DNA from: a virus
Lineage: Duplodnaviria > Heunggongvirae > Uroviricota > Caudoviricetes
Reading direction: 5' to 3' (one strand)
IMG/VR virus record: IMGVR_UViG_646311924_000020
Length of the DNA stretch: 43,730 nucleotides
The position numbers were made by a program, and so were the translations under genes. Below the pieces are notes generated by a model. That model saw nothing but the letters and a program-made list of their open reading frames with translations, was not told the origin of the DNA and did not search any database. Shown in pieces: positions 26,853-31,907 of the stretch; position 1 is the first letter of the stretch, and the number at the start of each line of letters is the position of its first letter.

Positions 26853-27325
26853 ACCTCAATCTCTCTGACCGTTCCGCCTGCTTCTTTGAATTTTGCAATC
26901 AGGTTGTCAGCCTTATGCTCGAACTGACCATAACCAGCGCCCGGCAGTGAAGCCCAGATATTGCTGCAACGGTCAATTGCCTGACGAATATCACCGCGAT
27001 CAATCATCGGTAAAGCGCCACGCTCCTTAATCTGCTGCAGCGCAACAGCGTCCTGGCTTTTTGGAGAGAAGTCTTTCAGGCCAAGCTGATTACGGTAGAC
27101 ATCCCACCAACGGGAAAGAAGCTGGTAACGTCCAGCGGCTGTTGATTTGAGTTTTGGGTTTAGCGTGACCAGTTTGCGAGGGTGATCGGAGTAATCGGTA
27201 AATAGCTCTCCGCCTACAATGACGTCATAACCATGATTTCTGGTTTTCTGACGTCCGTTATCAGTTCCCTCCGACCACGCCAGCATATCGAGGAACGCCT
27301 TACGTTGATTATTGATTTCCACCAT
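26849..27325 (-). CDS. R: endolysin, lambda R-type lytic transglycosylase
   Basis: 158 aa [51 protein letters not shown]..., nearly identical to recalled lambda R. Confidence 0.95.
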
Positions 27326-27632
27326 CTTCTACTCCGGCTTTTTTAGCAGCGAAGCGTTTGATAAGCGAACCAATCGAGTCAGTACCGATGTAGCCGATGA
27401 ACACGCTCGTTATATAAGCGAGATTGCTACTTAGTCCGGCGAAGTCGAGAAGGTCACGAATGAACCAGGCGATAATGGCGCACATCGTTGCGTCGATTAC
27501 TGTTTTTGTAAACGCACCGCCATTATATCTGCCGCGAAGGTACGCCATTGCAAACGCAAGGATTGCCCCGATGCCTTGTTCCTTTGCCGCGAGAATGGCG
27601 GCTAACAGGTCATGTTTTTCTGGCATCTTCAT
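27309..27632 (-). CDS. S: holin, lambda S-type (dual-start S107/S105)
   Basis: 107 aa [64 protein letters not shown]..., nearly identical to recalled lambda S. Confidence 0.95.
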
Positions 27633-27752
27633 GTCTTACCCCCAATAAGGGGATTTGCTCTATTTAATTAGGAATAAGGTCGATTACTGATAGAACAAAT
27701 CCAGGCTACTGTGTTTAGTAATCAGATTTGTTCGTGACCGATATGCACGGGC

Positions 27753-27787
27753 AAAACGGCAGGAGGTTGTTAGCGCAGCCTCCTGCC
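27753..27787 (-). terminator. candidate terminator between tRNAs and holin gene (tR'-like)
   Basis: Minus-strand hairpin with 9 bp stem (GGCAGGAGG/CCUCCUGCC, 12 nt loop) followed by GUUUUGCC; the U-run is short. Confidence 0.4.
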
Positions 27788-27874
27788 ACCCGCTTTCACG
27801 AAGATCATGTGTAGAAGGCCGCAGCGTAACTATCACTGATGAGTTCAGGATAGCCAGTGGCTACGGCTCAGTTA

Positions 27875-27950
27875 TGGTGCTGGTTAACGGACTTGAACCG
27901 CTACCCATTCGCTTACAAGGCGACTGCTCTACCATTGGAGCTAAACCAGC
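27875..27950 (-). tRNA. tRNA-Thr (anticodon UGU)
   Basis: 76 nt cloverleaf folded by hand: acceptor GCTGGTT/AACCAGC, D-arm GCTC/GAGC, anticodon loop CTTGTAA, T-arm with TTCAAGT loop, discriminator A, encoded CCA. Confidence 0.75.
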
Positions 27951-27955
27951 ATATT

Positions 27956-28030
27956 TGGCGGGACAGCGTGGACTCGAACCACGATAAGAAGGTTAACAGC
28001 CTTCCGTAATGACCTTTATACGACTGACCC
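27956..28030 (-). tRNA. tRNA-Asn-like (anticodon GUU), non-canonical, possibly pseudo-tRNA
   Basis: 75 nt: anticodon stem GAAGG/CCTTC with loop CTGTTAA, T-arm CGTGG-TTCGAGT-CCACG, encoded CCA; but acceptor stem has a T-T mismatch and the D-stem is only 3 bp. Confidence 0.55.
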
Positions 28031-28093
28031 AAATAAAAAAAGCCACCGTTGCAACTTAAGAGTCACTAACGGCAGCTTACCTTCTAATTATGG

Positions 28094-28612
28094 CTAAATG
28101 GATAATTGCATGTCAAGGCTTTTAACAGCAACATGCTTAACTTTCTCAACACGTTTACGCATTTTGAAAGCATTTTGCATTGGCTGGTACAAAACAAATA
28201 ACGACGCTTTCAGGATGTCGTCAATTTCGTTTCTACAGGTTGCCATTGAAGGTTTTCTCCATCCCTCGCCACTACGCCCACACATCTTGCGTGGCTTTGC
28301 AGTCGCGTGATAGTAGGATGCAATTGCTCGCTTAGATGAACCATGAGCGTAGTAGCTGAGGAGGATGCCAAAGGCTCTCTTGTCAATGTACATGACGGAA
28401 TCGACGACCTGAGAAATCAACATTCCATCATCATCATTACACATTGGCCTTGTCATAACTCTTCCCGGCTCTACGCTCTCCATGAACTTCGCTATTACGC
28501 TGCTCATACGCTTTTCCAGACGACCTGAATAAACCCATGCGCCCCACAGTTCAAGCCAGCCATTCAGCCACTCATGCTGTTCTTTGGTGAGGTTTAGTTC
28601 TCTTATGCCCAC
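28094..28612 (-). CDS. Q: late-gene antiterminator Q (Phage_antitermQ family)
   Basis: 172 aa with [21 protein letters not shown] and ILLSYY blocks resembling the recalled QuuD/Q21-type proteins; sits between the phosphatase gene and the lysis cassette. Confidence 0.7.
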
Positions 28613-29458: not shown

Positions 29459-30057
29459 GCGGCCTCACTTCTGCTATTTCGCAGGTCTTTGAGTTTCTGT
29501 TGGTACTCTGCCTTGATCGCCTTGCACTCTTCGACAGTCCAGCGATGGCGGCTATGGTTTGATTCGATTTCGTCTACTGCTTCCTGCCCGATGCGGTTAA
29601 TCAGTTCGACGCGATACGGAACGAGATTTCCGCTTTTGTGCTGGTTGCACACCACGCATTGCTTGTGAATATTGCGTTCATCAAATCGGAGTTGAGGTGC
29701 CGCAGCAGTTGTCCGGTAATGTCCGGCATCCCACTGAGCAGACGTGAGCGTTCCGCACGAGATACATGGTAAGTCGCGGTCTCTTTCTCTGATGAAGGCG
29801 TTTACGGCTTGTTGGGCTTGTTTAATCCAGTAACTGCGGGGCTTTAAGGCGAGTTTTCGAATCTTAAGTTTATCTTTCTGTTTCTGCTCCTCTCGTCGTC
29901 GTTTCTTCTCTGCTGCTTTTTCCGCTTTTTCGCGTTCTTTGCTTCGTCGTTCGAGTGCTATCTTGGTTCCACAAATCTCATTACACCAATATTGATTTTG
30001 ATATTTTGGTATAAACCATTCATTGCAACATTTACATTTCCTTCGATAGATTCGCAT
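29455..30057 (-). CDS. ninG: NinG (Rap-like recombination protein)
   Basis: From ATG 30057 ([15 protein letters not shown]...) the product matches recalled lambda NinG over most of its length ([18 protein letters not shown]...[20 protein letters not shown]...[10 protein letters not shown]...); the N-terminal ~30 codons are AT-rich and diverged. Confidence 0.85.
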
Positions 30058-30598
30058 AAGTGCTCCTTTCGTTGCCGGAAAAATCACCGTAATACTTATC
30101 TCGGGCTTCTTCAGCAACTAGTACCGCTAACTCCAGATCATCAAAGCATCCGAAGTGTTTACTCTTGCCATGGAATCCTAGCCTAACATTCCATTTTTTC
30201 TGTCGTTTGTGCCAAGTAACCCCTCTGCAACCTGATTTGCTATTCTTTCGGATCCTTATATTTCTTGAATTTTCTATTGGCAGGCATTCTCTTAAATTTT
30301 CTGGCCTATTGTCGGTCCTAATTCCATTAACGTGGTCAATTTGACCAGCAGGCCAACGATTATGAGTTATGTAAAAAACTAAGACGTGAGTTTTATATCT
30401 ACGCCCATCTATCATGATCATTGAATAACCGTTGGAATCAAAAGTTCCAGCAACACTATTTAATGCTATCCTTCCCTGAGTGGGAACTTTCCATCTAAAT
30501 ACCCCGGTAGATTTATCGAAACTTAGTAACTCAAATATCCTTTTAACAGTTAAATCTTCTCTTTTACGGTTACATCGTCTTCGCGCTGGTTTAGCCAT
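30032..30598 (-). CDS. HNH homing endonuclease with AP2-type DNA-binding domain
   Basis: 188 aa; HNH core ([33 protein letters not shown]) followed by AP2-like segment ([24 protein letters not shown]); AT-rich; overlaps the ninG start by 26 nt and begins MAKPARRRC. Confidence 0.8.
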
Positions 30599-30761: not shown

Positions 30762-30940
30762 CTTGTATTCCTCGCACGATGTCTTAGCCACCGGATATCC
30801 CACAGGTGAGCCGTGTAGTTGAAGGTTTTTACGTCAGATTCTTTTGGGATTGGCTTGCGTTTATTTCTGGATCGCTTCGTTGGAAGGTATTTGCAGTTTT
30901 CGCAGATGATGTCGGTGATACTTCGTCGCTGTCGTCTCAT
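30758..30940 (-). CDS. ninE: NinE
   Basis: 60 aa [60 protein letters not shown], matches recalled lambda NinE; ATGA overlap with upstream gene. Confidence 0.85.
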
Positions 30941-31464
30941 GCCGCCCTCCTGACGCCCCGCCCGATCGCCATCAATGCCGCTTTGGATACGGTAGTAAAC
31001 ATCCGTCGAGGACTGATGAACGGTCGCCAAATCAGCAGCATGGAGCCTTTACTGTTTCCCTTCTTCTCCAGCCCTGTCGATGGTTCGATAAAATTAATCC
31101 GTCCATCAGTGATAATGCGAACTTCGTCGACACTCTCCAGAGCCTTGCTGAACCATCCGACTGACATATCCTCTGGCACAAGCATAACTACCGTCTGTCG
31201 CTGTTGTATGCACTGCTCAGCGGCTTTTTCCACCCACGGCCTGATATTGCTGTACGGTGGGTTATTCCAGATTGCACCGTGGCTTATCCACTCAGAATTT
31301 AGCGCGTCGTCAGCCTCAGTTAGCCAGTGAGCGCACAGAGCGTTTTTGTCGCTCGCAGCTGAATCCAGCCAGAATCCAAACTCAATATCCAGCGCATCAA
31401 AAAGCCAGAGCGGCGTTTGCCAGCAGTCCTTGTCGTGTGCTGGCGTATTTGATTTGATAGTCAT
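30937..31464 (-). CDS. orphan DNA N6-adenine methyltransferase (phage Dam-like)
   Basis: 175 aa from ATG 31464 (ATGA overlap with ninB stop); catalytic NPPY motif ([10 protein letters not shown]) and N-terminal [13 protein letters not shown] block typical of small phage adenine methyltransferases; no adjacent restriction gene. Confidence 0.8.
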
Positions 31465-31907
31465 GCAGCCTTCCCTTTTCGTTGTGACCATTCATACTCT
31501 CGCCGGGAGTCATCACTCCACCGCACGTTGCGCTCTGAGCCGAACCAGAACATGATTTCGATAAGCTCAGTCATGCTGGCCTTTCGCATTTTGCTGGTAC
31601 GCACGCCAAGCATGACAACGCCACCGTCGATACCAGGCGCACTTCTTTGCTCCAGTTTTTTGGTCTTAAGCCACAGGGCAGTGAACAGGTCTTTCCAGTC
31701 TTCCGGCGCCAGCCGTTGACCATGCCATAGCACCTGACGCGAAACATCGTTCAGCATCGGCCACATGCGGTCATTCTGCGCTTTGCTGCGCTTGGGTTCT
31801 TTAACGTGGACTTCGTGGGGTGACTTGTCGTCGATGGGTAGTGAGAGAATGGCGTCTATGGCGTTATTTCTGATTGCTTCGTTGCGAAGCAGAAAGGTTT
31901 GCTTCAT
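31461..31907 (-). CDS. ninB: NinB (Orf-family recombination mediator)
   Basis: Start at internal ATG 31907 (MKQTFLLRNEAIRNNAIDAIL...); blocks QNDRMWPMLNDVSRQVLWHG and ERNVRWSDDSRREYEW parallel recalled lambda NinB. Confidence 0.8.
   Translation of the reverse strand: MKQTFLLRNEAIRNNAIDAILSLPIDDKSPHEVHVKEPKRSKAQNDRMWPMLNDVSRQVLWHGQRLAPEDWKDLFTALWLKTKKLEQRSAPGIDGGVVMLGVRTSKMRKASMTELIEIMFWFGSERNVRWSDDSRREYEWSQRKGKAA

Follow-up and report, generated by a model that had tools for sequence, protein, structure and literature searches.

A known tRNA-Asn/tRNA-Thr pair in the late-operon leader of a P22-like prophage: a published nuclease-resistant tRNA-Thr and a conserved tRNA-Asn of probably parallel function

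ARAGORN called exactly two tRNA genes in the 43.7-kb window, the whole stretch of 43,730 nt analysed here (IMG/VR record IMGVR_UViG_646311924_000020), both on the minus strand: a 76-nt tRNA-Thr(UGU) gene (tgt; 27875-27950) and a 75-nt tRNA-Asn(GUU) gene (gtt; 27956-28030), each with an encoded CCA. Both match Rfam RF00005 (gathering score 29), tRNA-Thr with 61.5 bits (E = 4.7e-11) and tRNA-Asn with 55.3 bits (E = 2.3e-9), scores that are far beyond chance. The assignments are backed by covariation in both cases, by identity with the phage 21 and Sf6 genes (and, for tRNA-Thr, with that of HK446) and, for tRNA-Asn, by a body resembling that of E. coli glyT. The genes are separated by a 5-nt spacer, AAUAU (DNA AATAT; 27951-27955, minus strand), which reads AACAU in phage 21 and Sf6. 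The observation of a tRNA pair at this position, with Thr(UGU) and Asn(GUU) genes 5 nt apart and both ending in CCA, is therefore confirmed, with ARAGORN, Rfam and the sequence in agreement; the proposed check with a tRNA predictor left neither gene rejected. A permissive Rfam E-value scan of 27500-28200 returned no RNA family beyond the two tRNAs, and on this basis the idea that the cassette or its surroundings contain another RNA family was rejected.

On the minus strand, the order of features is NinG, NinH, a NinI-type phosphatase, Q, pR', tR', tRNA-Asn, tRNA-Thr, a 242-nt leader, S, R and Rz. The direction of transcription is thus right to left, from Q through pR', tR', tRNA-Asn and tRNA-Thr to S. 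The Q-type late antiterminator gene (28094-28612, minus strand; Q21 family, Sf6 gene 59-like) was identified by Pfam PF06530 Phage_antitermQ (E = 1.8e-25), and its product is 84% identical to phage 21 Q, with the divergence located in the C-terminal part. The late promoter pR', TTGACA-18-CATAAT (28087-28116, minus strand), gave 11/12 matches in the promoter scan and differs little from the late promoter annotated in Sf6. It is followed by the leader terminator tR' (28031-28078, minus strand), which consists of a hairpin (28078-28040) and a U7AU3 tract (RNA fold -20.2 kcal/mol, z = -4.6), and which has exactly the sequence annotated as the terminator in phage 21 and nearly that of the Sf6 terminator. 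The U-tract ends at the base before +1 of tRNA-Asn, and in the interval from pR' to the tRNAs the promoter scan gave no promoter-like match. On the other side of the pair lies a structured lambda-type late leader of 242 nt (27633-27874, minus strand; fold -91.1 kcal/mol, z = -6.7), supported by its alignment to the lambda, phage 21 and Sf6 sequences, and then the lambda S-type holin/antiholin gene (27309-27632, minus strand; Pfam PF05106, E = 2.4e-30), the first protein gene 3' of the tRNAs. Rz and a likely R follow the holin gene, giving a lambda-type S-R-Rz lysis cassette. With the PF06530 and PF05106 genes on either side, the pair does sit between Q and the holin gene as had been claimed. 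The 242 nt that separate tRNA-Thr from S contain no toxin gene, also as stated before, and the sole ORF in them is a 50-aa GTG ORF.

The cassette is already known. Each of the two tRNAs matches its phage 21 and Sf6 counterparts with 100% identity, a single spacer base being the only difference across the pair, and identity over a 211-nt module is 99.5% with phage 21 and 99.1% with Sf6. This module matches 61 phage records and is present in 368 of the 5426 complete E. coli genomes searched, where, among the matches listed, the annotation is tRNA-Thr / tRNA-Asn. The Sf6 record AF547987 annotates the late promoter, the qut site, tR', tRNA-Asn and tRNA-Thr ("similar to phage 21"), and a recent record of phage 21 carries the corresponding annotations together with the QBE and a sigma-dependent pause element. 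Annotation of the tRNAs extends over dozens of phage records, those of phage 21 and Sf6 included, and hundreds of E. coli genomes. The same cassette occurs in BTP1, SfI, HK446, Kapi1, SPN9CC and many E. coli, Shigella and Salmonella prophages. The paper on SfI places the tRNA pair downstream of Q in SfI, Sf6, ST64T, PS3 and phage 21. In the phage L paper, the Asn gene is described as beginning 46 bp after the late start site, and excision of the tRNAs from the late mRNA as not known. The original prediction had overlooked the identity of the pair with the annotated phage 21 and Sf6 genes, as well as the published counter-defence role of the tRNA-Thr.

The window shares with phage 21 and Sf6 the order Q - pR' - tR' - Asn - 5 nt - Thr - lysis genes, tR' included. 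It differs from phage 21 in having a promoter/QBE and a Q C-terminus of Sf6 type, and in carrying, as Sf6 does, a lambda S-type lysis cassette instead of the S21 pinholin. At the upstream boundary, identity to phage 21 starts near the transcription start; at the downstream boundary, lambda late-leader homology resumes directly after the CCA of tRNA-Thr. Because of this immediate resumption, the 242-nt leader was counted as part of the lambda-type S leader, outside the cassette, and its inclusion in the tRNA module was rejected, given that lambda has the same leader without tRNAs. Taken in its entirety, the window represents a P22-like prophage of mosaic make-up, with relationships to phiv205-1, CUS-3 and Sf6, and it also carries a P22-type sar RNA. 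Two IS copies are present in the head genes, so the prophage may be defective, in which case selection may no longer be acting on the cassette in this prophage.

The slot is one that Stx phages also use for tRNAs, a comparison that had been drawn earlier and that holds for 933W, where ileZ-argN-argO plus stx2 lie downstream of Q, pR', qut and a terminator and upstream of the lysis genes. However, the pair in the window is not an Stx-phage ileZ-argN-argO cluster, since the isoacceptors differ (Ile, Arg and Arg in 933W) and stx is absent; in 933W, stx2AB follows the cluster and a separate putative tRNA promoter is annotated. P1/P7 and N4 also have Asn(GUU) followed by Thr(UGU), in the same order, and their Thr genes share a GCUGGUU/AACCAGC-type acceptor stem and G39 with the window tRNA-Thr. 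Their Asn genes, by contrast, are of a different lineage, in which the acceptor stem is GAUGGUG and the D-arm standard, and the P1/P7 pair has a C1-controlled operon as its genomic context. Among the tRNA arrays that occupy the late-leader slot, Asn-Thr was found at 76 loci, alongside Asn-Gly, Asn-Phe-Thr-Arg and others, with Asn always first.

The tRNA-Asn contains two mismatches, U4•U69 in the acceptor stem (28027/27963) and U13•U22 (28018/28009), the latter leaving a 3-bp D-stem. Both had been noted in the original prediction, which took them as signs that the gene may be a pseudo-tRNA or a decoy, that is, an RNA acting outside translation, for example by soaking up a nuclease or another tRNA-binding factor. 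The mismatches are real, the codon usage of the prophage gives no need for a tRNA-Asn, and overexpressed viral tRNAs have been suggested as possible competitive inhibitors of the PARIS nuclease AriB (PMC12409363), all of which would fit such a role. The remaining features of the gene point in another direction. It has C9, a 4-nt variable loop, the discriminator G73 (27959) and the anticodon GUU (27997-27995) in the anticodon arm GAAGG-CUGUUAA-CCUUC; all remaining stems are perfect, the CCA is intact, and U8, A14, G18G19, U33, the purine at position 37 (A37), U54-U55-C56 and A58 are all in place. The GUU anticodon and G73 together make up what we take to be the E. coli AsnRS identity set (G34-U35-U36 plus G73), which is complete in the window tRNA-Asn.

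For the analysis of covariation, IMG/VR was scanned with a pattern comprising the D-arm and the anticodon loop, which returned 120 loci with 37 distinct 75-nt variants; 26 clean variants formed the covariation set. Across these relatives, 93% of the cloverleaf is paired and 16 of the 21 pairs show changes on both sides. The GUU anticodon is kept and G73 is nearly invariant. None of 500 shuffles reached the observed paired fraction or the covariation score, and the pairing fell to 34-50% when the 3' partners were slid out of register. Just two positions are systematically unpaired, 13:22, which was fixed by the search pattern and the conservation of which is not independent evidence, and 4:69, which is unpaired in a lambdoid 'GGGU...' sub-family. 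In this sub-family, U4•U69 (at times U•C or U-G) is kept, and it persists even in Klebsiella-phage and other variants in which 5:68, 6:67 and 7:66 have been swapped by double substitutions. Because one substitution could close 4:69 and yet its neighbours have been doubly changed, the mismatch appears to be tolerated or selected, which is not the behaviour of decay.

The D-arm likewise has a precedent in the host. E. coli glyT, encoding tRNA-Gly(UCC), shares with the window tRNA-Asn U8-C9, the D-arm G10-U11-A12-U13/U22-U23-A24-C25, the 4-nt variable loop and the length of 75 nt, and is 72% identical to it, compared with 63% for the host asnT; the two differ in the anticodon arm, the acceptor stem and the discriminator (U73 in glyT, G73 in the window tRNA-Asn). 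Given that glyT has the same U13•U22 D-arm, the 3-bp D-stem is not aberrant. Marks of a pseudo-tRNA, such as uncompensated stem breaks, lost identity or loop elements, or drift, were not seen in the Asn gene, which has only two fixed non-Watson-Crick positions. The pseudo-tRNA or decoy reading was therefore rejected on the covariation, the identity elements and the comparison with glyT, and we regard it as highly unlikely; the sequence evidence suggests instead that the gene is a conserved, working-type tRNA and not a decayed pseudogene. It follows that this odd-looking gene, conserved and built on a glyT-type scaffold, is not to be dismissed as a pseudogene.

The tRNA-Thr, by comparison, had been described as canonical, a description that does not stand, since a G27•A43 mismatch that reduces the anticodon stem to 4 bp, U28-A42, C14 in place of A14 and a G50•U64 wobble make it structurally deviant. 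Its anticodon arm is GUCGC-CUUGUAA-GCGAA, and apart from position 14 it has the same set of loop and tertiary nucleotides, from U8 to A58, as the tRNA-Asn. The loci found for the Asn family supplied 14 distinct Thr variants, which are 94.9% paired, with four double-change pairs. G1-C72 and C2-G71 are invariant in these 14 relatives and 3:70, 5:68 and 6:67 covary. G27•A43 is unpaired in 14/14 variants, and position 14 is C, U or G in the 14 variants but never A. G1-C72, C2-G71 and the anticodon bases G35-U36 are presumably the E. coli ThrRS identity set, and all of them are present in the window tRNA-Thr, together with A73.

The deviant anticodon stem can be set beside published work on P2 Old, the effector of P2-lambda interference, which kills cells by cutting the host tRNA-Thr(UGU), as reported by Govande et al. 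(PMC12445682), and which also cuts the host tRNA-Asn(GUU), more slowly than thrU. The phage 21 tRNA-Thr "also protected against P2-OLD" and resists cleavage in vitro, a resistance ascribed to its shorter anticodon stem and to C28U/G42A, base-pair changes near the cut sites (PMC12445682). It rescues Old toxicity by restoring ACA decoding, and host thrU gives little protection from P2-OLD compared with this rescue (PMC12445682). The tRNA-Thr(UGU) of HK446 was likewise found to inhibit OLD, although the authors of that preprint suggest that this tRNA may reflect adaptation to a temperate lifestyle and not serve as an anti-OLD device (bioRxiv 10.64898/2026.07.10.737580). The window tRNA-Thr is identical in sequence to both, being 100% identical to that of HK446 as well, and thus has the same short anticodon stem and C28U/G42A. 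The window stem reads GUCGC/GCGAA, with G27•A43 and U28-A42, against ACUGA/UCAGU in the host, and the paired CNG motif of host thrU, CUG/CAG within a 5-bp stem, is replaced by UCG/CGA with G27•A43. Because the tested tRNA has the identical sequence, the window tRNA-Thr has the features described as the basis of Old resistance and is, judged by its sequence, the published Old-resistant replacement tRNA, the experiments having been performed by others. In those studies the tRNA was supplied from plasmids or constructs, whereas here it lies in its native late leader, in a possibly defective prophage. A deletion of these tRNAs in phage 21, Sf6 or HK446 was not found in the literature. The counter-defence role of the identical tRNA-Thr having been published in 2025-2026, little new is added by the present analysis on this point.

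Codon usage bears differently on the two genes. The comparison of ACA and AAC codons that had been proposed earlier showed enrichment for ACA only. ACA is found at 15.0 per 1000 codons in the window against 5.5 in an MG1655 sample (about 2.7-fold) and accounts for 28.2% of the Thr codons against 10.4%. AAC is not enriched, at 23.2 per 1000 codons in the window and 23.7 in the sample, or 48% and 63% of the Asn codons, respectively, while AAU stands at 24.8 against 13.8 per 1000. A role restricted to codon supplementation, in which the tRNAs would only boost the translation of late genes and have no part against defence nucleases, would be in keeping with the raised ACA and AAU, with the same ACA bias in the SfI paper, with thrU being the sole Thr(UGU) gene in the MG1655 regions examined and with the coat gene described in the phage L paper, in which AAC makes up 24 of 25 Asn codons. 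However, the cognate AAC is not enriched, and an extra tRNA-Asn is hard to justify with four asn genes in MG1655, a view with which the SfI authors concur; on these two grounds supplementation was rejected for tRNA-Asn. For tRNA-Thr it was kept as a partial explanation, as it leaves unexplained both the conserved G27•A43 with the altered anticodon stem and the P2-OLD rescue that is obtained with the phage 21 tRNA-Thr but little with host thrU. As a full account of the cassette, pure supplementation therefore seems rather doubtful to us, and codon supply and nuclease evasion, which are not exclusive, plausibly both act on the Thr gene.

We consider it likely that the locus is best explained as two functional phage tRNA genes in the late-operon leader, of which tRNA-Thr serves as a nuclease-resistant replacement and tRNA-Asn probably has a parallel function; the interpretation given in the original prediction is partly supported. 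By established lambda biology, RNA polymerase would start at pR' and stop at tR' unless modified by Q, and the Q-modified polymerase would read through tR' into tRNA-Asn, tRNA-Thr, S-R-Rz and the other late genes; N-type antiterminated polymerase from upstream probably reads into the tRNAs too. The tRNAs would then be cut from the late transcript by host enzymes, RNase P at the 5' ends and endo- and exonucleases at the encoded CCA. The released tRNA-Thr(UGU) would read ACA codons, which are commoner in the prophage than in host genes, and its altered anticodon stem (G27•A43, U28-A42, G39, G41) would make it a poor substrate of P2 Old, able to replace the destroyed host tRNA. We infer that tRNA-Asn, with its glyT-like body, functions as an acceptor of Asn and is charged and used in translation. 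The cassette would in this way keep ACA decoding going and, probably, AAC/AAU decoding.

Two further readings concern the position of the tRNAs rather than their decoding. The genes might act mainly as RNA-processing punctuation, with cuts by RNase P and RNase E removing the 5' hairpin and leaving a stable 5' end on the late mRNA, and with decoding secondary. The start of tRNA-Asn 1 nt after the tR' U-tract, its first place in the slot whatever comes next, and the location of the cassette between two mosaic junctions and ahead of a very stable leader would all suit such a function. Yet lambda has the same downstream leader without tRNAs, so that S expression needs no tRNA processing, and the conservation of identity elements and anticodons is unneeded for a pure processing signal; we therefore think this very unlikely as the main function. 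Still less credible is a role of the tRNAs in making up for a host tRNA gene that integration of the prophage has damaged, as the authors of the OLD preprint proposed for HK446 (bioRxiv 10.64898/2026.07.10.737580). Many P22-like phages do integrate in thrW or argW, as reported in the phage L and SfI papers, but according to the former, thrW-integrating phages rebuild thrW, which in any case encodes Thr(CGU) and not Thr(UGU), and asn genes are not involved. In addition, the terminator that precedes the tRNAs of the window should be shut in the lysogen, and the ARAGORN calls for the window, the surroundings of the left-end host junction included, comprise no further tRNA or tRNA fragment, on which basis the compensation reading was rejected. 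Self-immunity against a tRNA nuclease of the prophage's own was weakly excluded, PADLOC (2023 database) having returned an orphan methyltransferase and a marginal HNH match for 10 accessory ORFs.

Returning to two functional tRNAs in the late leader, a parallel role for tRNA-Asn can be considered in the light of PARIS. [quoted passage not shown] The cut falls between positions 40 and 41 in U36-A-A-U39-C40|N41, and U39A alone abolishes cutting of tRNA-Lys (PMC12409363). Lys, Thr and Asn tRNA variants of T5 jointly neutralise PARIS (PMC12409363, PMC11464382). At the AriB site, host thrU has UAAUCA and host asnT UAAUCC, compared with UAAGCG in the window tRNA-Thr and UAACCU in the window tRNA-Asn. 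The tRNA-Thr has G39 and thus lacks the U39 that AriB needs in tRNA-Lys. In the tRNA-Asn, the CNG triplets of the host tRNA (CGG/CCG) are replaced by AAG/CUU, with both lost. The stem of tRNA-Asn is therefore without the paired CNG of P2 Old substrates and without the UAAU-C|N site of AriB, and most likely, we infer, the gene has for Asn codons the role that tRNA-Thr has for ACA.

The resemblance to T5 is partial. Two of its three isoacceptors, Thr(UGU) and Asn(GUU), are shared, and in both the host U39 is replaced by G or C and positions 40-42 are changed. However, the sequences are unrelated, with the window tRNA-Asn 62% identical to T5 tRNA-Asn and the window tRNA-Thr 66% identical to T5 tRNA-Thr, and AriB resistance of the window tRNAs is a prediction from motifs. 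T5, moreover, is a virulent phage with about 25 tRNAs, as opposed to a two-tRNA cassette in a temperate phage, and tRNA-Lys is absent here; since it provides no tRNA-Lys(UUU), the main target of AriB, the cassette could not defeat PARIS alone.

The loss of the motifs from tRNA-Asn is weak evidence in itself, because the gene does not descend from host asn genes and its stem would differ for that reason; indeed, the chance of lacking both C28:G42 and U39 was estimated at roughly 60%. A general trend of phage tRNA-Asn genes to lose U39 or C28:G42 was not seen outside the lambdoid sub-family of E. coli, Salmonella and Shigella. In Klebsiella-phage relatives of the Asn gene the CNG motif is restored by CAG/CUG, and UAAUCA is present in several distant relatives. 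Evasion of AriB and Old by tRNA-Asn would accordingly be the weakest step of the proposed mechanism, and no direct test, expression study or deletion of a phage 21-type tRNA-Asn was found in the literature. Counted as indirect support for evasion by tRNA-Asn are the lack of a codon rationale, the constant first place and the Asn+Thr pairs in P7/P1 and N4. A counter-defence role would explain why Asn is constantly first, why codon usage offers no reason for it and why Asn+Thr pairs have been assembled independently in lambdoid phages, P1/P7 and N4. We propose, tentatively and as a possibility short of an expectation, that tRNA-Asn is the second half of a two-tRNA counter-defence cassette against Toprim tRNases (PARIS AriB, P2 Old or a relative), with the glyT-like body and U4•U69 as candidate anti-determinants for nuclease contacts away from the anticodon. 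As a possible second nuclease-evading tRNA of temperate phages, the gene is an evident candidate. Several phage records, HK446 and ST64T among them, are without annotation of these tRNAs, and a recent preprint credits HK446 with a single tRNA; counted as a one-tRNA phage, HK446 has therefore had its Asn gene overlooked.

Inspection of phage records revealed that tRNAs of the cassette are present without annotation in HK446 (JQ086372, 35097-35252), ST64T (AY052766, 21039-21113), ST160 and phiv205-1. HK446 was credited with a single tRNA (Thr) in a 2026 preprint (bioRxiv 10.64898/2026.07.10.737580); contrary to this description, the phage also carries the identical tRNA-Asn gene, 5 nt upstream of its tRNA-Thr.

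In phage JLK-2012 (locus L009, 781-934), the second tRNA is a chimera in which the 5' half of a phage-type tRNA-Thr is joined to a 3' half resembling thrU, the host tRNA-Thr(UGU), with an anticodon stem of just 3 bp, and it was not accepted by ARAGORN. The next gene in this phage, Gly(UCC), carries G37 in place of A37, a residue reported to be invariant among substrates of P2 Old, the defence nuclease that cuts host tRNA-Thr(UGU). In phage L / ST64T (locus L010, 781-852), the annotated 'tRNA-Leu(TAA)' that follows tRNA-Asn gave no ARAGORN call either, and combines the Thr-type acceptor stem with an anticodon arm that has been replaced. The slot's second position appears to be a hot spot at which anticodon arms are exchanged. 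The tRNA-Thr of the window itself has C14 (window 27937). A14, the partner of U8, is near-universal in tRNAs; position 14 of tRNA-Thr is occupied by C, U or G in the distinct relatives, with A in none of the 14.

Variation was also observed in the Asn genes. Those of Klebsiella phages (loci L006-L008 and the IMG/VR loci with the acceptor stem GGGTCGA) contain C28:G42 (CAG/CUG), by which the CNG motif, the paired anticodon-stem motif of P2 Old substrates, is restored, whereas the E. coli, Salmonella and Shigella versions lack it. The arrays of these Klebsiella phages read Asn-Phe-Thr-Arg(UCU). In two IMG/VR loci the 5' part of tRNA-Asn is joined to the 3' end of a Gly(UCC) gene (…TTCGATTCCCGCTACCCGCTCCA), a fusion that looks like the product of a deletion between adjacent tRNAs of an array.

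Between tRNA-Thr and S, the 242-nt leader (27633-27874, minus strand) folds at -91.1 kcal/mol (z = -6.7) and includes a perfect 9-bp GC hairpin, GGCAGGAGG...CCUCCUGCC, at approximately 27759-27790. The late leader of lambda is homologous to this leader, and phage 21 also has its first hairpin.

Elsewhere in the window, two minus-strand ORFs were noted: one with HNH_3 and AP2 domains (30032-30598), which overlaps the ninG start and looks like a homing endonuclease, and, in the nin region, an orphan DNA methyltransferase-like ORF (30937-31491). A full-length sar antisense RNA (6022-6089, plus strand; Rfam RF00262, 95.6 bits) adjoins an ant-like ORF (5086-5946, minus strand), together constituting a P22-type immI region. 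Two mutually inverted, 100% identical IS3-family copies of 1310 nt each (15260-16569 and 18439-19748), both containing the ALIL frameshift pseudoknot, flank a coat-like gene (16626-17879) and interrupt a scaffold-like ORF (17898-18386 and 19709-20104); this is probably a defective prophage, or one with an invertible head-gene segment.
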